DNA from: Dokdonella fugitiva | GTDB taxonomy: Bacteria > Pseudomonadota > Gammaproteobacteria > Xanthomonadales > Rhodanobacteraceae | Length of the DNA: 32,000 nt | Assembly: GCF_004342425.1 (NCBI RefSeq) | Contig: NZ_SLWQ01000005.1 | Span: forward strand, 253,476 to 285,475 | Direction: 5' to 3' | Shown: positions 4,684 through 14,482 of the stretch, one piece after another | How the letters are laid out: every line of letters begins with the position of its first letter | Numbering within the stretch: position 1 is the stretch's first letter | Notes under the pieces: generated by a model | What the model saw: only the letters and a program-made list of their open reading frames with translations | Told to the model about the DNA's origin: nothing | Databases searched by the model: none | Position numbers and translations under genes: made by a program

Positions 4684-5151
4684 ATGCCCAATATCGCCAC
4701 GTTCCTCAAAGCCGAAATCACACGCCTCGCACGCAAGGAAATCCGCGGTGAAATCGGTACGCTGCGCAAGACGAGCGCCGCGCACCGCCGCGACATTGCC
4801 GCGCTCAAGCGCGAAATCGCGAACCTGCAGCGGCAGAACAAGCAGCTCTCCAAGCGCGCCGCCGGCGCCTCCCAGGCCGCGACCGCCGAGTCCGGCGAAG
4901 GCGAAGTGAGGAACCGTTTCTCGGCCAAGGGCTTCAAGTCGATGCGCGCGCGCCTCGGCCTCTCGGCCGACCAACTCGCCACCCTGCTCGGCGCGAGCAT
5001 GCAGTCGGTCTACAACTGGGAACACGGCAAGACCGTCCCGCGCGCCAACCAGGTCGCCGCCATCGCCGCGCTGCGCACGATCGGCAAGAAGGAAGCGATG
5101 CGACGCCTCGAAGAGGCACAGGCGGCGGAGAAGCCGTCGCGCAAGCGCTGA
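4684..5151 (+). CDS. XRE-like helix-turn-helix DNA-binding protein with N-terminal coiled-coil region
   Basis: 155-aa ORF. The C-terminal segment LGLSADQLATLLGASMQSVYNWEHGKTVP is a classic HTH_XRE pattern. It sits outside the island repeat, so it is probably core genome. Confidence 0.6.
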   Translation: MPNIATFLKAEITRLARKEIRGEIGTLRKTSAAHRRDIAALKREIANLQRQNKQLSKRAAGASQAATAESGEGEVRNRFSAKGFKSMRARLGLSADQLATLLGASMQSVYNWEHGKTVPRANQVAAIAALRTIGKKEAMRRLEEAQAAEKPSRKR

Positions 5152-5324
5152 AGCAGTCACGCGCGTTCAAGCAGACGAGCAGCACGGCGCACGTCACCCT
5201 CGCGAAAGCGAAATTCCATCTGCATCGGCTTAGGACGTCAGATCCCCGCCGCCTGGGATGACGAAACGCGTTCACATGATCGGCCGTGGTCGACATGGAA
5301 ACGCAGCGCGCGTGCGTGCGCGAT

Positions 5325-5338
5325 GTGCCCGGACCCGG
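5325..5338. repeat. distal att direct repeat (copy of tRNA-Leu 3' end)
   Basis: GTGCCCGGACCCGG is identical to 14398-14411. It corresponds to the T-stem 3' strand, acceptor 3' strand, discriminator and first C of CCA. Confidence 0.7.
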
Positions 5339-5341
5339 CGT

Positions 5342-5437
5342 CGCATTGCGCACGCATGTTATTGATTTACAGAGCATCGGCATGCGACAACCCGAGCAGA
5401 TACCCCCGAAAGAACCCCCGCGCTTGGCGCGGGGCGA
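5342..5437. repeat. element-end module, copy L (CGCATT / TGATTTAC / GATACCCC / GAACCCC blocks plus GC hairpin)
   Basis: The four blocks sit at offsets 0, +21, +57 and +70, exactly as in copy M at 7825. They are followed by the hairpin CCCCGCGC-TTG-GCGCGGGG (5416-5434) and GCGGGGCGA. Confidence 0.6.
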
Positions 5438-5555
5438 GCCGCTCCGATGCGGCTCCAAAAGCTACCGTAGTTGGTAGATGCGTCTACCGGCGCTAGTAGC
5501 TCCGCTGTGCTCGAATTTCTCGGCGCCACTTCGGCGCGACGAGAGGATCGACACC

Positions 5556-5921
5556 ATGGACACGAGCACCGCCCTGCGCACCGCGATCGAGCTGCTGACC
5601 CAGGTCGCCGACCGAGCATGCGCGAACGGCGCGATTGCAGCCCTGCCGCCCGACTTCGACGACCGCTACGACGAGTTGACGGACGCGCTGAGCGGAATCG
5701 CTGGACAGCCGCGCGCCGCATGCTCTCAGCCACCGGCGGCCACCAAGTCGACCGCGGCACTCATGACCGCACGCGAAGTCATGGCAGATACGGCCATGAG
5801 CCGCAGCACGCTCTACCGCTTGATCCGCGAGGGGCGCTTTCCTGCGCCGGCGAAGGTCGGCACGATGTCGCGCTGGCACGCAACCGCGGTCGCGGATTGG
5901 AAGGCGCGGCTCTTCGCATGA
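5556..5921 (+). CDS. AlpA-family HTH regulator/excisionase-like protein with ~70-aa N-terminal extension
   Basis: The C-terminal MSRSTLYRLIREGRFPAPAKVGTMSRWHATAVADWK is the AlpA (CP4-57 regulatory) signature. GAGAGGA lies 8 nt upstream of ATG 5556. The stop overlaps the integrase ATG (ATGA at 5918-5921). An alternative start at 5763 would give a 52-aa AlpA-only protein. Confidence 0.7.
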   Translation: MDTSTALRTAIELLTQVADRACANGAIAALPPDFDDRYDELTDALSGIAGQPRAACSQPPAATKSTAALMTAREVMADTAMSRSTLYRLIREGRFPAPAKVGTMSRWHATAVADWKARLFA

Positions 5922-7132
5922 GCTGCCGCCAACTTCACCGACTCACCGCGCGCGCGGTCGCGACCGCGACGACGCCAGGATACATCGCCGACGGCGGCGG
6001 CCTGTATTTGCAGATTACCGCAAGCGGCGCGCGGAGTTGGGTCTTGCGGTTCATGTTGCGCGGTCGCGCGCGCGAAATGGGGCTCGGCTCGGCCACGATG
6101 GTTGGGCTCGCAGAGGCGCGCCAACGCGCGGCGGAGTGCCGACGCCAGCTCGCCGACGGCATCGATCCCATCGACGCCAGAGCGCGCGCACGCGCGCAGA
6201 ACGCTCACACCTTCGAGGCGGTCGCGACGGAGTACATCGATGCGAACGCAGGCGGATGGCGCAGCGCCAAACATGCCGATCAATGGCGGCAGTCGCTCGG
6301 GACGTACGCGTTCCCGGTCATCGGCCGCATGCCGGTTGCGGCGATCGACCTCGCGCACGTGCTCCGCGTGCTGGAGCCTGTCTGGACAACCAAGACAGAG
6401 ACGGCCACGCGCGTGCGCCAGCGCATCGAAGCCGTGCTCGACTACGCTGCGGTGAAGCGGTACCGGGCGGCGGGCAGCGAGAACCCGGCGCGCTGGCGCG
6501 GGCACCTGCAGCGGATCCTCCCCAAGCCGTCCCGCGTGTCGCGCGTGCGGCACATGAGCGCGCTGCACTACAGCGAACTGCCGGCGTTCATGGCCACGCT
6601 ACGCGCGCTGCCGCAGGGCCCGGCCGCGCTGGCGCTGCAGTTCACCATCCTGACCTGCGCGCGAACGGGCGAGGCGCGAGCGGCGACCATGGGCGAGATC
6701 GACGTCGACGCGGCGCTATGGACCGTGCCAGGGTCGCGCATGAAGGCGGGCAGGGAACACGTCGTCCCGCTCTCGGCCGCCGCGCTCGGCGTCGTGCGCG
6801 CGACCGGCGTCACGGAAGGGGCGCTGTTCACCTATCGGCGGGCGCCGATCAGCAACAACGCAATGCTCGCGCTCCTGCGCCGCATGGGTCGCGGCGACAT
6901 CACCGTGCACGGCTTCCGCTCGACCTTCAAGGACTGGGCGACCGAGCAGACCGACTTCCCGACCGACGCGATCGAGATCGCGTTGGCGCACACCGTCGGC
7001 GACAAGACCGAGCAGGCGTATCGGCGCGGCAACCTGCTGGCGAAGCGCCGCGCGCTCGCCGACGCCTGGGCGGCGTACTGTGGGAGCGTCACGCAGCCCG
7101 GGCGATCCCCACCGCGGGATATGCGGTGGTAG
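5918..7132 (+). CDS. int: tyrosine integrase (arm-binding DUF4102-type N-domain plus phage integrase catalytic domain)
   Basis: N-terminus LTARAV..PGYIADGGGLYLQI..SWVLRF..MGLGS, and catalytic motifs ARTGEAR, HGFRSTFKDW and EQAYRRG. Start chosen at ATG 5918. The 5471-5917 extension of the listed ORF overlaps alpA and is rejected. Confidence 0.9.
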   Translation: MSCRQLHRLTARAVATATTPGYIADGGGLYLQITASGARSWVLRFMLRGRAREMGLGSATMVGLAEARQRAAECRRQLADGIDPIDARARARAQNAHTFEAVATEYIDANAGGWRSAKHADQWRQSLGTYAFPVIGRMPVAAIDLAHVLRVLEPVWTTKTETATRVRQRIEAVLDYAAVKRYRAAGSENPARWRGHLQRILPKPSRVSRVRHMSALHYSELPAFMATLRALPQGPAALALQFTILTCARTGEARAATMGEIDVDAALWTVPGSRMKAGREHVVPLSAAALGVVRATGVTEGALFTYRRAPISNNAMLALLRRMGRGDITVHGFRSTFKDWATEQTDFPTDAIEIALAHTVGDKTEQAYRRGNLLAKRRALADAWAAYCGSVTQPGRSPPRDMRW

Positions 7133-7292
7133 CCTTTGGCCGCTCGCACCCGTCCACTACTGGAGAAGTGCCTTGACGACCAAGCCCGCACCGCCGCCGC
7201 CGCGGCAACCGCCTACCCCGCATCCTCGCAATCTGCCGCCATTTCGAACCGTCCCGCCGCCGCCACCGCCGTCGAAGCAGGGCTAGGCTCAA

Positions 7293-7775
7293 ATGCGACC
7301 CGACGAGATGCAGGCGCGAACCTCGACTGAGGCCCGAAACGACCTCATCTACCAGATCCGTTTGCACGAGCTTCACGCTACGCTCTTCCGACGGTTGAAA
7401 TGGTTGGCGTCGCTCGTCTCATTGCTTGCTGGTGCGTCGGCCGTGACGAGTTGGGTTCAATCGCAGCCCGGCGGCGTGTTTGTAGCGGGCTTGGTAGTCA
7501 CGATCACCGGCGTTCTCGACATCCTTGGGCGCTGGGAGGAGCGAGGCGCAGCACATCGCGCGTGGCGCCGCCAATTCGCCGAAATTCTTGCGGAAGCGCC
7601 TGTGCTATCGGACGAGGATCTGCATGCGGCCTACGTGCGGGCCGAGGCGAGCGTCGACGACACGCTACGAAGCTTGGAGCGCGTTGCGTACAACGACGCC
7701 ATGCGCTCGCTCGGCCTGTATACGCGGCGGGTGTGGGAATGGCCATCGAACTGGTTAATGCGCTTGTTCGTGTAG
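7293..7775 (+). CDS. small two-TM protein with SLATT-like architecture (tentative)
   Basis: 160 aa, built as an N-terminal helix, two adjacent TM helices (WLASLVSLLAGASAVTSWV and GVFVAGLVVTITGVLDILG) and a helical C-terminus. This layout resembles SLATT/DUF4231 2TM effectors. The assignment is by eye only. Confidence 0.5.
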   Translation: MRPDEMQARTSTEARNDLIYQIRLHELHATLFRRLKWLASLVSLLAGASAVTSWVQSQPGGVFVAGLVVTITGVLDILGRWEERGAAHRAWRRQFAEILAEAPVLSDEDLHAAYVRAEASVDDTLRSLERVAYNDAMRSLGLYTRRVWEWPSNWLMRLFV

Positions 7776-7824
7776 GGAGCGGGAGCATTGATCCAAAGCG
7801 ATATTCGATGCCGCATGCAGCACC

Positions 7825-7930
7825 CGCATTCACGCGCCAACGTGCTGATTTACCTGCCAGCTTGCTGACGCAAGATTGAGCGATACCCCGACCTGAACCC
7901 CAAAAAAGCGCCCCGCGTGAGGCGGGGCGA
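7825..7930. repeat. element-end module, copy M
   Basis: CGCATT 7825, TGATTTAC 7846, GATACCCC 7882 and GAACCCC 7895 have the same spacing as copy L. They are followed by a GC hairpin ending in GCGGGGCGA. Confidence 0.6.
7901..7929 (-). terminator. rho-independent terminator of the minus-strand island operon
   Basis: On the minus strand, stem CGCCCCGC / GCGGGGCG with a 5-nt loop is followed by TTTTTT (A-run 7902-7907 on plus). It lies 26 nt downstream of the 7955 stop. Confidence 0.75.
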
Positions 7931-7954
7931 ATGGCTGGCGCACGCGGGAACGGA

Positions 7955-8695
7955 TCACGCCGCGCGGATCTCGAGACTCTTCTTCGGCGCGAGCGCATCG
8001 ATCGCCTCGACGTACTGCGGGACGACCGTACGAAGCCACGCGAGACGCTCCTGCGCTTCGCTGCGCAGCGTCGCCTCGCGCGGGTTGGCCCGTGCCATCG
8101 CGTTCGCCCAGGCGGTCGGCAGCGTCGCCGCGAGCACGCCGGGCAACGGCATGGGCGAACGCATGAGCGCGACGAGCGCGCGCGGATGCTTCCCGTCCAT
8201 AAGTTCGTGCGCGAGCCTTGCCTGCGCATCGGGCGACATCGCGCGCCAGAGGTCGCGCACCTCGCGATCCTCCGCCGCACCGACGGCATCGTTCATCGCC
8301 AGCGGCGGCGGCGAGCATGATTTCGCGTCGGCCTCCGCGAACTCGTCGATGCGCTTCATCGCCTCTACGCGCGCGCCCTCGATCTCGTTGCGAGCCGCCG
8401 CGGCGATGGCTCGACGCTGCTCGGCCTTCCATGCGTCGGTGCGCGTGGCGTCGGCCTCCACGTCGGCAATGCGCTTCGCGGCGCTCGCGGCGATGCGCAG
8501 CACCTTCGCTGCGTGGTTGAACTCGGCGTGGTCCGTATTGGCATGAAGCGGCGCGCGCAGCGCAACAACGCCGCCAGTCGCAAGGCGGAGAGCGGATATC
8601 CCGTCGGGCTCGCCCCGCTCGACCTGGCCCCAGATCGGGGTAACGCCGAGTTCGGAAAAGCTCTCCGCAAAGCGGAGTGATTCTGCGTGGTTCAT
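7955..8695 (-). CDS. hypothetical protein, 246 aa, Ala/Arg-rich and largely helical
   Basis: Last ORF of the island operon. Its ATG overlaps the upstream stop (ATGA at 8692-8695) and it is followed by a terminator. No motif recognised. Confidence 0.55.
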   Translation of the reverse strand: MNHAESLRFAESFSELGVTPIWGQVERGEPDGISALRLATGGVVALRAPLHANTDHAEFNHAAKVLRIAASAAKRIADVEADATRTDAWKAEQRRAIAAAARNEIEGARVEAMKRIDEFAEADAKSCSPPPLAMNDAVGAAEDREVRDLWRAMSPDAQARLAHELMDGKHPRALVALMRSPMPLPGVLAATLPTAWANAMARANPREATLRSEAQERLAWLRTVVPQYVEAIDALAPKKSLEIRAA

Positions 8696-8901
8696 CGCGA
8701 GCCCCCGATGCGCTGCGGGTCGTGCTTCGGCGCGTTGCTGTGGTCGTGGTTTCCGCGGTCGTGCGCGGCGGCATTGCCGGTAGCGTCGACCGGGCGCATG
8801 CCCTCCGCGACGAGGCCGGCGCCGGGATTCGATGCGGGCGCGGCCGGCGCGTGCGCGGCGCTTGCGCCGTTCACGAGTGCCTGAGGATTGAAACCTTTCA
8901 T
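8692..8901 (-). CDS. hypothetical small low-complexity protein, 69 aa
   Basis: ATG at 8901 with AGAGG about 11 nt upstream, and a 4-nt overlap with the next gene. Composition is Ala/Pro/His-rich, so coding status is uncertain. Confidence 0.35.
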   Translation of the reverse strand: MKGFNPQALVNGASAAHAPAAPASNPGAGLVAEGMRPVDATGNAAAHDRGNHDHSNAPKHDPQRIGGSR

Positions 8902-8952
8902 GGGTGCGTGCCTCTTTTGTCGTTCGCCGCGAACCGCGCGGCAGCGGGTTTG

Positions 8953-9147
8953 CTATACAGGCCTCGCCGTGCGCGGCGTGAGCGTCAGCGCAATGATCGG
9001 CGCGCGTGGATTGGCCGCTTTGGCCGCGGCGAGGTCGCGCTCGCTTGGGGAGTACAGGACAACGGCGGACTGCGGCAGATCGCGAGTCGCGCGCACGCGC
9101 TCGAGGCGCCGCTCGATCCGCGCAAGCCGGGAGCGCATGCCCCTCAT
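8953..9147 (-). CDS. hypothetical small protein, 64 aa, N-terminal RLARIERRLE motif
   Basis: ATGA overlap with the upstream ORF at 9144-9147. Its N-terminal motif is shared with the neighbouring 100-aa ORF. Confidence 0.4.
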   Translation of the reverse strand: MRGMRSRLARIERRLERVRATRDLPQSAVVLYSPSERDLAAAKAANPRAPIIALTLTPRTARPV

Positions 9148-9446
9148 GCCGACGCCCTCCGCTCGAGGTCAGCGAGTTCGATCTGCTGATCGCGCGCCAG
9201 GCGCGACCACGTGTCGGCGTCGATCACGGCCGGCACGAGCAGGCCACGTCCGACGATGTGCCCGTCCGCCAGCCGGCGCGCCGACGCAGCGTGCGCGGGC
9301 ATGCCGCGCCGCTCGCACGCGGCGGCCTCGCGCAGCACGTCTCGGCGCACGCCTTCGGGCACAGGCGCGCATTCGGCGCCGCCATGTCGCGCGCGCTTCG
9401 CTTCCAGCGCGCCGAGTCGGCGAATCAGGTCACGACGCATCGGCAT
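9144..9446 (-). CDS. hypothetical protein, 100 aa, N-terminal RRLGALEAKR motif
   Basis: GGAGGGAA lies immediately upstream of ATG 9446. There is a 17-nt overlap with the upstream DUF5681 ORF. Confidence 0.45.
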   Translation of the reverse strand: MPMRRDLIRRLGALEAKRARHGGAECAPVPEGVRRDVLREAAACERRGMPAHAASARRLADGHIVGRGLLVPAVIDADTWSRLARDQQIELADLERRASA

Positions 9447-9852
9447 TTCCCTCCAGCTCGGCCAGCCGGCGCTCGATCTCGTCCGCCTGGCGAATGTCCG
9501 AGCAACCGCGCAGTGCGGCGATCAGCTCGGCCGCGACGTCGGGCGCCAGTTCGCCAGCCGCGGCGGCGCGCACGAGCGCCTGCGCGGCCTCTGCCGGCGT
9601 CGTGGCGTTCGCAGCCGACTCGACCACGATGGGCTCGCGCGTCGCGCGCAGGGGCGGCGCCACGCGCGAGAGCACGAGCGCAATCGCGGCAACGTCGCCG
9701 TTGCGCGCGCGGTGAAGCAACGCCTGCAGGACGTCAGGCATCGCGCCATCGAACGCTTGGCGAATGCGCGAACGCTTGTCGACGATGCCGCGCGGCCGCC
9801 CCTTCGGGTTGCCAGACTGCCCCGGCTTGAAGGGCCTTCCACGCTCAGCCAT
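9430..9852 (-). CDS. DUF5681-type protein, candidate small-terminase-like (TerS-like)
   Basis: The N-terminal GRPFKPGQSGNPKGRPRG is the DUF5681 signature as I recall it, a family often seen at the terS position in phages and GTA-like elements. Start moved to ATG 9852 (GGAGCAGCAC upstream) rather than the listed GTG 9867. Confidence 0.6.
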   Translation of the reverse strand: MAERGRPFKPGQSGNPKGRPRGIVDKRSRIRQAFDGAMPDVLQALLHRARNGDVAAIALVLSRVAPPLRATREPIVVESAANATTPAEAAQALVRAAAAGELAPDVAAELIAALRGCSDIRQADEIERRLAELEGNADAS

Positions 9853-10474
9853 GTGCTGCTCCCTCACTGTTTATATCAGCGCCGCCCGGCGTGTGTTCGG
9901 CGTCACGGATTCCGTACGCTTCGCTAGCAGCGGCTCTGATCTCAGTCACTGTGTCGTAGAGGAGGCCGCCCTGAGCCATCAGGGAATCAAACTCAGCACG
10001 ATTGCGTGCGATCGCATCGCGCTGCTCCTGCGGTGCGCAGTCGAAAAAAACGTTCGCAGGAATTTCCTCGATAAACTTCGCATCGTGACGCTCAAACGCG
10101 ATTTCGGCTTCGGCTCGAACGTGATCTCCCACTGAGTATTTCGCGACAACAAACTCGTGTAGGGGTTCGCCTTCGCAGGCGCAAGGGAAGAATTTGCTCA
10201 GCATCACTATCGACGGCGATGCGAAGATCCTCTCGGGAACTAGCGCCATGGTTTGCCAAGCGCTGAATACGGCGGGCTTCTCCCGAACATCGAATGCATA
10301 CACCCCCCAACCGGTCTGGAGGTAACAAAGCAACAAGGCGACGCGGTCACAAGCATTCGACTGCCAGGGCCCGAGCCTGGACACGCGGTGTTCCAAGCGA
10401 TACGCGTTCCTCATCCTGCCCAAACCCCGAATGAAAACGGCGTTCCTCATGGCTTGCTGGTGCTGCTCAGACAT
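9845..10474 (-). CDS. orphan hypothetical protein, 209 aa, in a lower-GC patch (candidate accessory cargo)
   Basis: GGGAG lies 8 nt upstream of ATG 10474. The 60-nt lines at 10081, 10141 and 10201 count 53, 55 and 57% GC, against 73% for the line at 11041. No motif recognised. Confidence 0.6.
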   Translation of the reverse strand: MSEQHQQAMRNAVFIRGLGRMRNAYRLEHRVSRLGPWQSNACDRVALLLCYLQTGWGVYAFDVREKPAVFSAWQTMALVPERIFASPSIVMLSKFFPCACEGEPLHEFVVAKYSVGDHVRAEAEIAFERHDAKFIEEIPANVFFDCAPQEQRDAIARNRAEFDSLMAQGGLLYDTVTEIRAAASEAYGIRDAEHTPGGADINSEGAAHG

Positions 10475-10525
10475 CTCATCGGCTCCCGAAAACTGCGCTG
10501 CTCCAAATCCCCATACCCCTAGGGA

Positions 10526-10594
10526 TTAATTCGGCGCACATGCGCGCGCCGATTAACCCAATGCGCCTAACCCGTATTCGGCGCATTCGGCGCA
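10526..10594. promoter_or_regulatory. iteron-like repeat cluster / palindromic operator at the 3' end of the ATPase gene (candidate ori)
   Basis: ATTCGGCGCA occurs at 10529-10538, 10576-10585 and 10585-10594. There is an imperfect palindrome TTAATTCGGCGC (10526-10537) / GCGCCGATTAA (10546-10556). ATGCGC recurs three times, and the palindrome CCCTAGGG lies at 10517-10524. Confidence 0.45.
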
Positions 10595-11763
10595 TGCGCC
10601 CGGATCGCGTACCGCCGCCGCACCTTTCGCTGCGGGGTCAGGTACTCCTCGCGCACGAGCTCGCCGGAATCCTCGAGGCGCGCCAGGGCGGCCCAGAAAC
10701 GCGGCTTGGCCCGCAGCGCCGAAGGGAAGCCGGGGAGGTCTACGGCGGTCGTGTACGTCGTGGCGCAGCCGGTGCGGTGGCAGCCGATGACGTCGCCGCG
10801 CACGATGGCTGCGCGCAGGCAGTGCAGCAGCAACAAGTCGTCGCCGCCGGTGGCGTCCCCGGCAGCCGCCGGCAGCGGGACGCCTGCCGCGTTGACGCGA
10901 AGCGGGATCGAGTCAACGCGGCGGCACAGGTTCGCCTTCTCGTGCCGCAGCTCGAGCGCGCCGTCGCTGTCGACGAGCGCGAGGCGCGAGCGCGCGCTGT
11001 TGTGCCACGCGGTGCTTCCGCTGAACGTGTTTCCGCTCGCCCCGTGCCGCGCAGCGTGCTTGTCGACGTGCACGAGCAACAACACCGCGGCGCCGGCGTC
11101 GCGCCCGATCTTGGCGAGCGCGCGGACGAACGTGCGGACCTGCCGGCGATCGTTCTCGTTCGCGTCGTACGCGTCGGATGCATTGTCGATCACGACGAGC
11201 GCCGCATCGGCGGCCGCATCGCGAACCTGGTGCATCGTCGAGGTCGGCTCGAGCACGGCACGCCCGGCGATGACGAGTTCGTACGCGAGCGCGGTTGCAT
11301 CGGCCTCGGTTCCGTCGAGGATGATGAGACTGCGCGCGACGGCGAACGCGTCGAGCTGGTAGGCGTCGCAGATCGCGCGCAGGCGCCAGCGGACAAGCTC
11401 GCCGGGATCTTCCAGCGAGACGAACACCGCGCGCCCCTGCGCGCACGCGAGTGAGGCCCACGGCACGCCGGCGGCAACATGGGCAGCGATCGCGAGCGCG
11501 AGCGTGCTCTTGCCCGTGCCGCCGTGCCCGCCGAGCAGCGTGACGTGTCCGCGCGGAACGATGCGGTCGACGACGAACTCGGGCGCCTGCAGGGTCGCGG
11601 CGGCGAGATCGCCCACCTCGACGACGCGCAGCGATGCCTCGACGGTCATCGCCGGCGCCGGGCGCAACCATCGGCGCGCATTGTCGAGCCGAGCGAGGTC
11701 GCGTTCAGACAGTTCGTCGATGTCGCGCAGGCGTCGCGGCAACAACTCGGGAGCGGCGCTCAT
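10567..11763 (-). CDS. RepA/AAA_25-type (RecA-fold) replicative ATPase/helicase-like protein
   Basis: Walker A GGHGGTGKST and Walker B-like ALVVIDNASD. Start set at ATG 11763, which overlaps the upstream stop (ATGA). The Arg-rich 11764-12042 extension is rejected. Confidence 0.8.
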   Translation of the reverse strand: MSAAPELLPRRLRDIDELSERDLARLDNARRWLRPAPAMTVEASLRVVEVGDLAAATLQAPEFVVDRIVPRGHVTLLGGHGGTGKSTLALAIAAHVAAGVPWASLACAQGRAVFVSLEDPGELVRWRLRAICDAYQLDAFAVARSLIILDGTEADATALAYELVIAGRAVLEPTSTMHQVRDAAADAALVVIDNASDAYDANENDRRQVRTFVRALAKIGRDAGAAVLLLVHVDKHAARHGASGNTFSGSTAWHNSARSRLALVDSDGALELRHEKANLCRRVDSIPLRVNAAGVPLPAAAGDATGGDDLLLLHCLRAAIVRGDVIGCHRTGCATTYTTAVDLPGFPSALRAKPRFWAALARLEDSGELVREEYLTPQRKVRRRYAIRAHAPNAPNTG

Positions 11764-12194
11764 GCGGTCAGTACCTCGCGCGCGCATTGGATGCGGTCGA
11801 TCGCCTCGCGCAGCCGCGCGATGTCGTCGGCGTCGAACAAGGCACCATCTTCGATGGCCTTGGCAGCCGCGAGCGCGACGGCGCTCTCGCGTGCGAGCAC
11901 GCGCACCGCCGCGGACCAATCCGCATCGCGCGCAGCGCGGCGGCGCTCCTCTCGCGCCATTGGCGAGTGATCGCCCAGGCGGGCAGCGAAGAGGTCCGCG
12001 ACGCTGAGCCCGACAGCGCCCACGACGTCGGCGACCGGGCATCCACTGAAACAGTGGGCCAACACGCGTCCGTCATCACCGACGGCGATCGACAGCGAGG
12101 CGGTGCGATCGTCATGCGCCGGGCAACGCGCTGTCCAGCCGTTACCGCTGCGGCGGACGCCGATCAAGCGCGACAGCAGTGCGTCGACGCTCAA
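11760..12194 (-). CDS. primase-type zinc-finger protein (CHC2-like), no catalytic primase domain evident
   Basis: The motif WTARCPAHDDRTASLSI..HCFSGC is a typical primase/helicase-loader zinc ribbon. A TTG start overlaps the upstream stop (TTGA at 12191-12194). Confidence 0.65.
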   Translation of the reverse strand: MSVDALLSRLIGVRRSGNGWTARCPAHDDRTASLSIAVGDDGRVLAHCFSGCPVADVVGAVGLSVADLFAARLGDHSPMAREERRRAARDADWSAAVRVLARESAVALAAAKAIEDGALFDADDIARLREAIDRIQCAREVLTA

Positions 12195-12628
12195 GCGAAG
12201 TGCCTGCGGCTCTCGCGGCGATCCGCGACGCGCCGATGGTCAGCGAGGGCGCGCAGCAGCCCGTCAGCCGCGGCCTTCCACTCGGGGATGCGCGCGAGGC
12301 CACGGTCCGACCCCAGCCGGCGCACGGCAACGCGAAGCTGCGTCAGGCGGCGCGACGACGCCGGATAGCGCAGCGCGCTGAGCGCGTCGCATATGGTGCG
12401 CATGCTCTCGACATCGGCGGCGATGACCGCGGCGCGCAATGCGTCGCGCACGTCGGAGAGCAGGGCGGCAACGGCGCGATCGGTCTTGCCGTTCGGGAGA
12501 CGGACATGCGCAGCCAGGGCGACAGAGGCGCGGCCGAGCTCTTGCGACGCGCGGTGATGCGCGAACAGCGCGCGAAACGCGGCCTCGAGCGCTGCCGCGC
12601 GATCTGCGGAGCGAAGCGGCGCGCTCAT
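12191..12628 (-). CDS. hypothetical helical protein, 145 aa
   Basis: Start set at ATG 12628, overlapping the alpA stop (ATGA at 12625-12628). No motif recognised. Confidence 0.5.
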   Translation of the reverse strand: MSAPLRSADRAAALEAAFRALFAHHRASQELGRASVALAAHVRLPNGKTDRAVAALLSDVRDALRAAVIAADVESMRTICDALSALRYPASSRRLTQLRVAVRRLGSDRGLARIPEWKAAADGLLRALADHRRVADRRESRRHFA

Positions 12629-12849
12629 GCGGCCGCCTTGCGTGCACGCGACGCCGCAACGCGGTCGGCGATCCATGCACACACTTCCGCTTCACGCCAA
12701 GCGGCGCACCGCTCCGAAATCTTGATCGGTGCCGGAAACTTGCGCTGCGCGACGAGCGCGTAGGTCTGTGACCGGCCCAAGCCGGTGAGGTGCATGACCT
12801 CGCGCAGCCGAATGAGGCGCTGGGTGGCAAGCTCTTGCATGGGGCGCAC
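12625..12849 (-). CDS. alpA: AlpA-family transcriptional regulator/excisionase-like protein
   Basis: 74 aa. LIRLREVMHLTGLGRSQTYALVAQRKFPAPIKISERCAAWREAEVCAWI is the AlpA signature. Confidence 0.8.
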   Translation of the reverse strand: MRPMQELATQRLIRLREVMHLTGLGRSQTYALVAQRKFPAPIKISERCAAWREAEVCAWIADRVAASRARKAAA

Positions 12850-12888
12850 CTTGTTGGGATCAGGTGCGTCCAGAATCGTCCGGCGCGC

Positions 12889-13018
12889 GTTGACACTCCA
12901 TCGCGCCGAATCAGCGGCCTTGCAGCTATCGGATCAACGACTTGCGCTGTAGCTCGGCACGCGCGATCTGCGCAAGGCCTTGATTTTCCGTGTTGACAGT
13001 CCTCAACGATCCGTCAAC
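12889..13018. promoter_or_regulatory. repeated GTTGACA(C/G)TCC boxes in the int-alpA intergenic region (candidate operator)
   Basis: GTTGACACTCC at 12889-12899 and GTTGACAGTCC at 12992-13002 match at 10 of 11 positions. An inverted GTCAAC lies at 13013-18, 15 nt from the second box. Confidence 0.35.
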
Positions 13019-14225
13019 GCGCTGCGCGCATGGGCACGACGTTCGAACCCGAGCGCAGCGCATCGAGGTAGTCGGCCCACGCCTGCATCATCCTGATGCG
13101 CTCCTTGAGATACATCGCGCGGTTGTAGACGGCGCGCACCTTGTTTCGCTCGGCGTGCGCGAGCTGGCGCTCGATCACGTCAGGCGACCACCCCATTTCG
13201 TTCAAACGCGTCGAGGCCATCGCGCGGAACCCGTGCGCCGTCATCGTGTCGCCGTCGTAGCCGAGCCGGCGCAGAGCAGCCGTGATGGTGTTCTCGCTCA
13301 TGGGCCGGTCAGGCGTCCGCAAGCTCGGGAACACGTAGCGGCGCGATCCCGTGAGCGGTTGAATCGCACGCAGAATCGCGACCGCCTGCGTAGCGAGCGG
13401 CACCACGTGCCCCTCGCGCATCTTCATCCGGCTGGCCGGGATGCGCCATTCGTGCGCGTCGAGGTCGACCTCCGCCCACTCCATCGCTCGCAGCTCGCCG
13501 GGACGCACGAACAGCAGCGCCGAAAGCTTGAGCGCAGCGGCCGTCGTCGGCTGTCCGATGTAGCCGTCGAGCGCGCGGAGCAGCTCGGCGACCTTCGAGG
13601 GATCCGTTATCGCAGCATGCGATGTCGCGACGACGGGCGCGAGCGCGCCGCGTAGGTCGGCAGTCGGGTCGCGCATCGCGCGTCCGGTCGCGACCGCGTA
13701 GCGGAATACCTGGCTCGCCTTCTGGCGCGCGCGATGCGCGGTCTCGATCGTCCCAGCGGACTCGATGCGCCGGAGTGCGGCCAGCACATCCGGCGCGGCG
13801 ATCGCCGCAATGGGCATCGCGTGAATCGGCGCGAGCAACCCGAGCAGCCATTGCGCCTTCGCGCGCGTGACCGGCGCGAGCGCGTCCTTCTGCCGCGCGA
13901 GCCACTCGTCGGCGATCGCCCGAAAGCTTTCCGCTGCCCCGACTCGAGCGGCGACCTTGCGAGCGCGCCGCGCCTGCGATGGGTCGACACCCTCGCGCAA
14001 CAATGCGCGCGCCTCGTCGCGACGCTGGCGCGCTTCGGCGAGCGAGACCTCGGGGTATGCGCCGAACGAGAGCAGCAGCTCCTTTCCGGCGAAACGGTAC
14101 TTCATGCGCCACAGACGCGAGCCGCTCTGCCTCACGAGCAGAAACAGGCCGCCACCGTCGAACAGCTTCCCAGGTGCCGCGCTCTTGATCGCGAGCGCCG
14201 TCAGCTTTCCCATGCGCGCCGTCAC
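13014..14225 (-). CDS. int: P4/CP4-57-type tyrosine integrase
   Basis: N-terminus KLTALAIKSAAPGKLFDGGGLFLLV..RLWRMKYRFAGKE..FGAYPEVSLAEAR, and catalytic motifs VRPGELR, HGFRAMAST and RAVYNRA. It directly abuts the tRNA-Leu 3' end. The listed start is GTG 14225, with an alternative ATG at 14213. Confidence 0.9.
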   Translation of the reverse strand: MTARMGKLTALAIKSAAPGKLFDGGGLFLLVRQSGSRLWRMKYRFAGKELLLSFGAYPEVSLAEARQRRDEARALLREGVDPSQARRARKVAARVGAAESFRAIADEWLARQKDALAPVTRAKAQWLLGLLAPIHAMPIAAIAAPDVLAALRRIESAGTIETAHRARQKASQVFRYAVATGRAMRDPTADLRGALAPVVATSHAAITDPSKVAELLRALDGYIGQPTTAAALKLSALLFVRPGELRAMEWAEVDLDAHEWRIPASRMKMREGHVVPLATQAVAILRAIQPLTGSRRYVFPSLRTPDRPMSENTITAALRRLGYDGDTMTAHGFRAMASTRLNEMGWSPDVIERQLAHAERNKVRAVYNRAMYLKERIRMMQAWADYLDALRSGSNVVPMRAAR

Positions 14226-14229
14226 GTGC

Positions 14230-14281
14230 GTACCCCCGCAGACAGGGCCAACGCAGGCCCGATACCCCGGACGATACCCCC
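14230..14281. repeat. three (G/A)TACCCC boxes between int and the tRNA (candidate integrase arm-type sites)
   Basis: GTACCCCC at 14230-14237, GATACCCC at 14261-14268 and GATACCCC at 14273-14280. They have the same orientation as the boxes at 5399 and 7882. Confidence 0.4.
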
Positions 14282-14395
14282 AAGGCTCGCCGGATTCAAC
14301 CGAACGCTCGCGGACCCTACTGGACGAAATACCGCTCGATTTATGGCCTTTTCACGCAGACGCCGGACGTTGGCGGACCGTTGTGGAGGCTGCTT

Positions 14396-14482
14396 TGGTG
14401 CCCGGACCCGGACTCGAACCGGGATGACCTTGCGGTCGAGGGATTTTAAGTCCCTTGCGGCTACCGATTTCGCCATCCGGGC
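14396..14482 (-). tRNA. tRNA-Leu (anticodon UAA), type II with long variable arm
   Basis: The reverse complement folds as a cloverleaf. Acceptor is GCCCGGA/TCCGGGC, anticodon arm AGGGA-CTTAAAA-TCCCT, T arm CCCGG-TTCGAGT-CCGGG, and CCA is encoded. Confidence 0.9.
14398..14411. repeat. proximal att direct repeat within the tRNA-Leu 3' end
   Basis: GTGCCCGGACCCGG, identical to 5325-5338. Confidence 0.7.

Follow-up and report, generated by a model that had tools for sequence, protein, structure and literature searches.

The DNA analyzed here is a 32,000-nt stretch of a Dokdonella chromosome (hereafter the window; GC content ~0.69; source genome 4.28 Mb), which carries a 9.07-kb island inserted at a tRNA-Leu(UAA) gene. 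At the end of this island that lies away from the tRNA, we find a conserved pair of genes: an unannotated short open reading frame (micro-ORF) encoding a polyproline peptide, and directly behind it a gene for a 160-aa protein that is predicted to span the membrane twice and appears remotely related to the SLATT effectors. The distal 2.6 kb of the island, in which this pair follows an integrase operon, may be a small recombination-plus-cargo unit that was joined to a satellite-like backbone, its cargo being a translation-gated two-gene cassette of foreign composition. Taken as a whole, we regard this reading as evenly balanced between right and wrong. The mosaic of recombinases is ordinary mobile-element biology, and it is the pairing of polyproline leader and SLATT-like gene that merits experiments.

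A first-pass annotation of this DNA had placed alpA-1, int-1 and the 160-aa gene in the distal segment, and ORFs are present at exactly those positions:

5556-5921, plus strand: alpA-1, encoding an AlpA/HTH_17 DNA-binding protein (121 aa from the ATG at 5556)
5918-7132, plus strand: int-1, encoding a P4-type tyrosine integrase (Arm-DNA-bind_3, Phage_int_M, Phage_integrase)
7173-7286, plus strand: polyproline micro-ORF of 37 codons, unannotated (TTG start at 7173, TAG stop at 7284-7286)
7293-7775, plus strand: gene for the 160-aa two-transmembrane protein of the phrog_11791 family (from hydropathy, a structural model and profile searches)

A conserved polyproline micro-ORF upstream of the 160-aa gene

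The micro-ORF lies entirely within the 160 nt that separate int-1 from the 160-aa gene. A Shine-Dalgarno sequence (SD; GGAGAAG at 7162-7168) stands before the micro-ORF, which encodes the peptide MTTKPAPPPPRQPPTPHPRNLPPFRTVPPPPPPSKQG with the C-terminal end RTVPPPPPPSKQG, and stops 6 nt before the ATG at 7293 with which the 160-aa gene begins. At 55% identity, the nearest homologue of the 160-aa protein is a moron in the early region of an unrelated prophage, and there a micro-ORF ending in TPRNAPPHRTVPPPPPPNPQR stops 4 nt upstream of the gene. Eight of the residues common to the two peptides are encoded by different synonymous codons.

This arrangement recurs among related loci. In a sample of 21 distinct loci besides the window (locus GC 0.49-0.66; not all independent), 15 have a micro-ORF with PPP or a longer run near the effector start, and a further two have a proline-rich micro-ORF without PPP. 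The PPP-containing micro-ORFs stop between -38 and +25 nt from the effector start, including four ATGA-type overlaps, with the last proline codon 2-12 codons ahead of the stop. Many of them share a loose motif, (R)PV(R/S)(D/L)T(F/L)-P5-6, followed by a K/G/E-rich tail, and their proline codons vary synonymously from locus to locus. At several loci, the codons of this tail (e.g. AAA AAG GAG or GGA) would, in our reading of the junctions, double as the SD of the effector. As a control, the same detector was run on 3988 long ORFs from the genome of the window (69% GC) and fires at 16 of them (0.4%). Because of this difference in frequency, chance and base composition cannot explain the recurrence of the micro-ORF by these counts, even with loci that are not all independent.

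Other origins of the peptide were considered and rejected. A proline tract produced as a by-product of high GC content is at odds with its recurrence at loci with a GC of only 0.49-0.57, with synonymous variation in its codons. Likewise, a spanin-like lipoprotein was discarded, as the peptide lacks both a signal sequence and a lipobox. At none of the loci with gene calls is the micro-ORF annotated, and as such it represents a systematic gap in genome annotation; full-text literature searches found no paper describing its pairing with a SLATT-like gene.

Relationship of the 160-aa protein to SLATT effectors

The 160-aa protein had been described from its sequence as a helical protein with two transmembrane (TM) segments, and this layout is borne out. 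Hydropathy peaks cover residues ~35-56 and ~57-81, and an AlphaFold model built from a 106-sequence alignment is all-helical with a pLDDT of 95.7 (helices 11-47, 49-57, 61-79 and 81-100, followed by C-terminal helices). The predicted topology is two TM segments with both termini inside (N-in/C-in). The gene has a GC content of 0.62 and a third-position GC content (GC3) of 0.74, lower than its neighbors (0.71 and a host-like 0.88 for int-1), and is probably of separate, foreign origin for this reason.

By profile search, the protein matches the phage families phrog_11791 (1.6e-15) and phrog_6315, both without known function, and reaches only E=0.012 with NCBIfam SLATT_1 (15.6 bits, well short of the cut-off of 41). 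An exhaustive HMMER search returned 193 cluster representatives, nearly all of 150-170 aa, and 106 of these were scanned singly against profile collections. NCBIfam SLATT_4 (NF033632) matches 66 of the 106 (best 5.4e-8), SLATT_1 (NF033634) matches 39 (best 2.2e-6) and Pfam DUF4231 matches seven; no other family recurs. In a Foldseek search of BFVD, the top matches to the model are SLATT-annotated giant-virus proteins (prob 1.0, TM-score 0.5-0.58, no E-value better than 5e-3), which carry the annotation of SMODS/SLOG-associating 2TM effectors. Because family members match SLATT_4 and SLATT_1 and the model matches these viral models, the 160-aa family appears to be a remote branch of the SLATT superfamily and not a member of any curated family, an assignment supported at the superfamily level only.

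The family is sparse, occurring in 6 of 400 genomes of the class and 9 of 400 of the phylum, a patchy rarity that fits accessory, mobile genes. A tblastn search of 50,697 phage records with the 160-aa protein gave no match, a scan of viral contigs with a four-member alignment confirmed none, and a word-indexed protein search found a single relative. In the one prophage context examined, that of the closest homologue, the gene lies outside a lysis module. Separately, in one related locus (L057, genome G1196), the cassette relative sits between a cI/LexA-type repressor gene (HTH_3 + Peptidase_S24 + SNase) and a GTA_holin_3TM gene, neighbors that place it in a prophage immunity region.

The first-pass annotation had remarked on a lone SLATT-like protein without a sensor partner. 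SMODS, SLOG, CD-NTase, reverse transcriptase (RT) and TIR genes are indeed absent from the island and from the surroundings of the relatives examined, and PADLOC gave no match for the 160-aa protein. The gene is nevertheless not alone, given the conserved polyproline micro-ORF directly upstream of it.

Several results count against the cassette as we read it. The name SLATT-like, also given in the first pass, holds as remote homology only, through the 66 SLATT_4 matches of the family; the protein itself fails every curated SLATT threshold, and a Pfam search with it gave no match at E<=0.1, to SLATT, DUF4231 or any other family. A fold search of the PDB with the model gave no meaningful match to a solved structure. 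Four of the 21 related loci have no recognisable micro-ORF. Finally, the leader RNA (7150-7340) folds no better than shuffled sequences (z = 0.51), and an unmasking hairpin of the ermC/secM type was dropped as a consequence.

The island and how its distal end may have formed

The flanks of the window are collinear with, and 86-94% identical to, a D. fugitiva genome (G061) in which the site is empty: 196 bp separate tRNA-Leu from the helix-turn-helix (HTH) gene that borders the insertion (window 4684-5151), in place of 9.2 kb in the window. Positions 5325-14411 are therefore a single 9.07-kb insertion at the tRNA-Leu(UAA) of the Dokdonella chromosome. Its features outside the cassette operon are:

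5325-5338: distal attachment (att) core, GTGCCCGGACCCGG, a 14-nt exact direct repeat of the tRNA-Leu(UAA) 3′ end
5363-5437, no strand assigned: outer end module, with a GC hairpin at 5416-5434 that is terminator-like on the minus strand
7846-7930, no strand assigned: inner end module, including a minus-strand terminator at 7909-7929 with a T-run
7955-8695, minus strand: p246, the last backbone gene, outside the cassette; its homologues end the backbone in two related satellites
12625-12849, minus strand: alpA-2, which follows int-2 in the tRNA-proximal recombination module
13014-14225, minus strand: int-2, the tRNA-proximal integrase gene, which precedes alpA-2 beside tRNA-Leu
14396-14482, minus strand: tRNA-Leu(UAA), the integration target (ARAGORN)
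14398-14411: proximal att core, within the 3′ end of tRNA-Leu(UAA)
5400, 7883, 10513, 14052 (minus strand), 14230, 14262 and 14274: RTACCCC boxes

The core GTGCCCGGACCCGG has only these two exact copies within the window. The right two thirds of the island form a minus-strand, satellite-like backbone in the order int-2, alpA-2, p163, p144, AAA_25 helicase, p209, DUF5681, p100, p64, p69 and p246, and the left third reads the opposite way. A sigma-70 scan of 5150-8000 found no promoter-like site.

The left third opens with the alpA-1/int-1 operon, whose start lies ~150-230 bp in from the distal att core and whose genes point into the island. AlpA-1 matches Pfam Phage_AlpA (PF05930) at 37 bits (cut-off 21) and PF12728 at 28.5 bits (cut-off 27), the domain occupying residues 95-144 of a 147-aa form that would start at an alternative ATG at 5478. 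With this match confined to the C-terminal ~50 residues, the protein has an N-terminal extension of ~70 aa, as noted in the first pass, and the coupling to int-1 proposed there is likewise present, the alpA-1 stop overlapping the int-1 start as ATGA at 5918-5921. The word-indexed search found one relative of AlpA-1, the metagenomic protein P0273, which is 62% identical over its whole length and whose gene precedes a gene other than int-1. Ahead of the annotated alpA-1 start, a run of 26 codons (5478-5555) agrees with P0273 at 24 of 26 positions with a GC3 of only 0.65, and a CTACC-N6-GGTAG palindrome lies at 5463-5478, by the alternative start. This stretch may be either the true N-terminus of AlpA-1 or a conserved regulatory stretch.

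Int-1 matches PF13356 (74.7 bits), PF22022 (110 bits) and PF00589 (45.8 bits), and its catalytic positions (ARTGE, HGFR, LAH and AY) align with those of Int-2 to give a complete R..HxxR..Y set; PADLOC gave no match for it. The two integrases had been assigned to different subfamilies. They are 34% identical with the same P4-type Pfam architecture, which by sequence makes them different clades of one family and not different families.

The mirror-image arrangement reported in the first pass, in which alpA-1 precedes int-1 at one end and int-2 precedes alpA-2 beside the tRNA at the other, is as described, and comparison with relatives shows it to be the native geometry of the int-1 clade. Int-1 has its nearest relative (86%) in a ~53-kb prophage that occupies tRNA-Ser(UGA) of D. 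fugitiva G061 (contig C1, ~329.6-383.4 kb) and is bounded by the 14-nt repeat TGGCGGAGAGAGTG. The integrase gene of this prophage stands at the end away from the tRNA, 140 bp in from the repeat, and reads inward. An Int-1 orthologue at tRNA-Leu of D. fugitiva was considered and rejected, since the gene lies 200 kb away, in tRNA-Ser. Genome G059, from a different family within the order, has a 6.35-kb satellite in tRNA-Ser(CGA), bounded by a 14-nt repeat (L026:8813-15163), with an Int-1-like integrase (49%) at the distal repeat that also reads inward. It is because these two integrases share the distal, inward-reading position that we assign the geometry to the clade.

The G059 satellite continues after its integrase with homologues of p144, the helicase, DUF5681 and p246. 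A second relative of the backbone, in the same genus as the window (G903), is a satellite in tRNA-Lys(UUU) with a 27-nt repeat (L053:5040-12496) and an unrelated tyrosine integrase. The backbone genes common to these relatives are p144, the helicase, DUF5681, p100 and p246. Between p246 and the distal att, the G903 satellite holds 1.8 kb of unrelated ORFs; the cargo slot itself (L053:10974-12228) contains two ORFs without Pfam or PADLOC match, one of them 216 aa with an N-terminal TM helix. Given this unrelated integrase and these other ORFs, the comparison indicates that the backbone swaps integrases and has a cargo slot exactly at the position of the window cassette. The island appears as a clean case of integrase-module exchange and accretion in a small family of satellites, with one backbone, three integrases and three tRNA targets.

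In the window, this position is bracketed by two end modules of ~85 bp, each reading TGATTTAC-N28-GATACCCC-N5-GAACCCC followed by a GC hairpin, in identical register and spacing. Their local alignment scores 33, higher than any of 167 controls taken from real sequence (up to 30) or of 500 shuffles (up to 25). The inner hairpin is a strong terminator of the satellite operon and the outer hairpin a weaker copy of it; the intact core adjoins the outer module only. RTACCCC boxes, of which seven are observed with 1.18 expected, cluster in the int-2 arm (14230-14280), in the two end modules and in the stretch that follows the helicase gene, and are candidate arm-type or AlpA binding sites. The 19.9-kb G903 locus has none.

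For the distal segment, the first pass had left a choice among a separate mini-element, a captured recombinase module and a cargo slot. The evidence favors, and does not prove, a small int-1 element that was accreted with the cassette as its cargo, because int-1 stands in the native geometry of its clade, end modules bracket the cassette, and a related satellite has a cargo slot at this place. Two elements would have accreted at the same att site: the int-2 satellite, and either a small element with int-1 or the int-proximal part of something larger. The internal core would then have decayed to leave a composite with two recombinases.

A number of observations weigh against this history. The first pass had suggested looking for the segment as an independent unit elsewhere, and a DNA search of 5300-7900 across 61 relatives found partial integrase matches only, with no independent copy of the cassette. 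Aligned in register without gaps, the two end modules agree at only ~45% of positions, too few for a recent duplication. Where an inner core would lie (~7807-7821), the sequence is at best a degenerate trace of one, leaving two intact cores overall. The outer module has RTACCCC boxes in common with the int-2 arm, which points to a possible use of the outer att by Int-2. The closest relative of Int-1 uses a completely different core, in tRNA-Ser, so that Int-1 may not act on the tRNA-Leu core. Finally, an alpA that is upstream, co-directional and ATGA-coupled is atypical: the other relatives of Int-1, at 61-66% identity (L065-L067), have a short AlpA gene (59-67 aa) downstream, convergent to the integrase 3′ end and overlapping it.

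Many of the same observations would be accommodated by a single 9.07-kb satellite with int-2 as its own integrase, whose accessory slot between p246 and att captured an alpA-1/int-1 end fragment and a moron cassette from a resident prophage, leaving int-1 a passenger. The cargo of the G903 satellite at the same position, the flanking of the composite by just two intact cores, the shared RTACCCC boxes, the tRNA-Ser target of the closest Int-1 relative and the three different integrases among satellites of this backbone, which bespeak module exchange, are all in keeping with such a capture. It would not predict, however, that int-1 stands at exactly the distance and orientation from the core that its clade displays, nor does simple capture explain why two end-module copies bracket the slot, and int-1 is intact with a host-like GC3 of 0.88; we consider this course a serious rival, possible but doubtful. 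The segment could also descend from an int-1-type temperate phage at tRNA-Leu with the satellite in tandem, of which deletion of the internal att and nearly all phage genes left a decaying int end and a moron. That the nearest relative of Int-1 belongs to a ~53-kb prophage, that the closest homologue of the 160-aa protein is a prophage moron, and that the internal core is not intact would suit such a remnant. All four ORFs are intact, however, and the conserved micro-ORF has been kept; related prophages carry the cassette away from int, with xis/alpA convergent downstream, so that the segment is not a simple truncation of them, and the inner end module resembles a satellite end rather than a phage end. 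A prophage remnant, also a serious rival, is highly unlikely in our judgment, and we retain the accreted int-1 element as the simplest and preferred history.

Two side observations concern cargo and islands elsewhere in this genome. Within the backbone, the p209 ORF (9845-10474) has a low GC content (0.57; GC3 0.64) and no Pfam or PADLOC match, and is probably a second piece of foreign cargo; p246 also had no PADLOC match. On contig C3 of the same genome (~113.5-119.6 kb), a second island of like kind adjoins tRNA-Thr(UGU), with an Int-2-like integrase (60% aa), a p144 homologue (48%) and then a 439-aa ORF; a possible 12-nt repeat lies ~6.1 kb away.

Proposed action of the cassette and comparison with known systems

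Runs of at least three prolines stall bacterial ribosomes unless elongation factor P (EF-P) intervenes (PMC4176338). Ribosomes translating the micro-ORF would have to cross its PPPPPP tract, an EF-P-dependent motif, in order to terminate beside the SD and start codon of the effector. A ribosome paused on the tract would, by our estimate, cover the ribosome-binding site of the effector and occlude it, and one that clears the tract would terminate within a few nucleotides of the effector AUG, where it could reinitiate. Synthesis of the effector would in this way be gated by translation of the leader. As no alternative RNA structure was detected in the leader (z = 0.51, as above), steric occlusion or coupling fits better than hairpin unmasking. 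Alternatively, the peptide itself could be the active partner, as an antidote or a ribosome-binding proline-rich peptide.

The effector is envisaged to act on the inner membrane as a phage-exclusion or abortive-infection device borne by lysogens and satellites. The effector of DRT10/UG17, a SLATT-5 protein, travels on P4-like satellites, prophages and a phage-inducible chromosomal island (PICI) (PMC9122126; bioRxiv 10.64898/2026.04.29.721553), and it is because of this analogy that we consider phage exclusion or abortive infection the probable role of the cassette. A bolder version, which we think rather unlikely, is that the micro-ORF and the SLATT-like protein form a self-contained module that monitors the state of translation, with phage disturbance releasing a membrane-depolarising effector. 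Effector synthesis would then be tied to EF-P- or prolyl-tRNA-dependent transit, or the peptide would hold the pore closed.

It is also conceivable that the cassette is not a defence effector at all. The membrane protein could have a holin/antiholin-like or membrane-anchoring role for the element, or the peptide could be the active component, akin to the ribosome-binding proline-rich antimicrobial peptides (PrAMPs) of animals, in which case the membrane protein would export it or provide immunity to it. The sub-threshold SLATT assignment, the absence of a known sensor partner and of PADLOC matches, the PHPRN and PPFR motifs and basic tail of the peptide, and the one relative beside a cI-like repressor and a holin-family gene could all be seen in this light. 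Yet the K/G/E-rich tail is explicable, in our reading, as the effector SD read as codons, and outside the proline run and the short motif preceding it the peptide varies freely, which is more leader-like than ligand-like; in addition, the gene lay outside a lysis module in the prophage context mentioned above. We therefore hold a non-defence role to be decidedly unlikely and return to the gated effector.

The general view is that SLATT effectors depend on a sensor of their own, which may be a cyclic-nucleotide synthase, a SLOG protein, or a reverse transcriptase with its non-coding RNA. To our knowledge, the trigger of the SLATT pore has yet to be settled even for DRT10, the case studied in most depth. 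A widespread family of SLATT-like proteins that has a polyproline micro-ORF as its one conserved companion would be a much simpler system, two small genes in ~0.6 kb, and could show how such effectors are restrained and released. If the proposed gating is true, it would link EF-P-dependent translation to mobile-element conflict. If the surveillance version is true as well, a leader peptide would serve as immune sensor where other systems use a nucleotide-signalling enzyme or reverse transcriptase, and prophages, satellites and mini-islands would have carried the module across Pseudomonadota as cargo.

As for the island, tandem accretion at one att site is familiar from integrative and conjugative elements and cis-mobilizable elements (ICE/CIME) in streptococci and from tandem islands at tRNA genes. 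The island resembles these cases in having two recombination modules inside one att pair and an internal junction that looks like an element end. It differs in that its internal core is not intact, exact repeats bound the composite only, and the two integrases face each other. The AlpA-IntA pair of the E. coli prophage CP4-57 and the P4-family integrases likewise offer an AlpA-family HTH protein beside a P4-type integrase at a tRNA-type att; alpA-1 is unlike these in lying upstream of int, coupled through ATGA, with an N-terminal extension of ~70 aa. The island also resembles the defence hotspots of P4-like satellites and PICIs (Rousset et al. 2022, PMC9122126), being small, satellite-like and tRNA-integrated, with int, alpA and replication helicase genes and a variable accessory slot by the recombination module, filled with different cargo in a related satellite. 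Unlike in those hotspots, a further intact integrase gene, accompanied by an alpA of its own, also occupies the slot.

The 160-aa protein shares with SLATT two-TM effectors (SLATT_4, SLATT_1, DUF4231) a small helical build around a central two-TM hairpin and remote profile similarity across its family, and its fold may resemble that of SLATT-annotated models. It is unlike them in scoring below thresholds and in having a polyproline micro-ORF as its conserved neighbor where SMODS, SLOG, CD-NTase, TIR or RT genes would stand. Like them (PMC9122126; bioRxiv 10.64898/2026.04.29.721553), it is accessory cargo of prophages and satellites.

Coupled translation of a toxin has a precedent in hok/mok, which the proposed leader coupling resembles. 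The leader and arrest peptides SecM-secA and MifM-yidC2 (PMC4423224) are similar in that a short ORF ends at or near the start of a membrane-protein gene, although here no alternative RNA structure was detected and the gene that follows would encode a toxin-like effector rather than a housekeeping factor. Proline-bearing leader ORFs are also found in the Salmonella mgtCBR operon and as the mgtQ upstream ORF (PMC8092293). The likeness extends to EF-P-dependent stalling at PPP (PMC4176338), for which the expected sequence features, a PPP or longer run 2-12 codons before the stop, appear both present and conserved in the micro-ORF.

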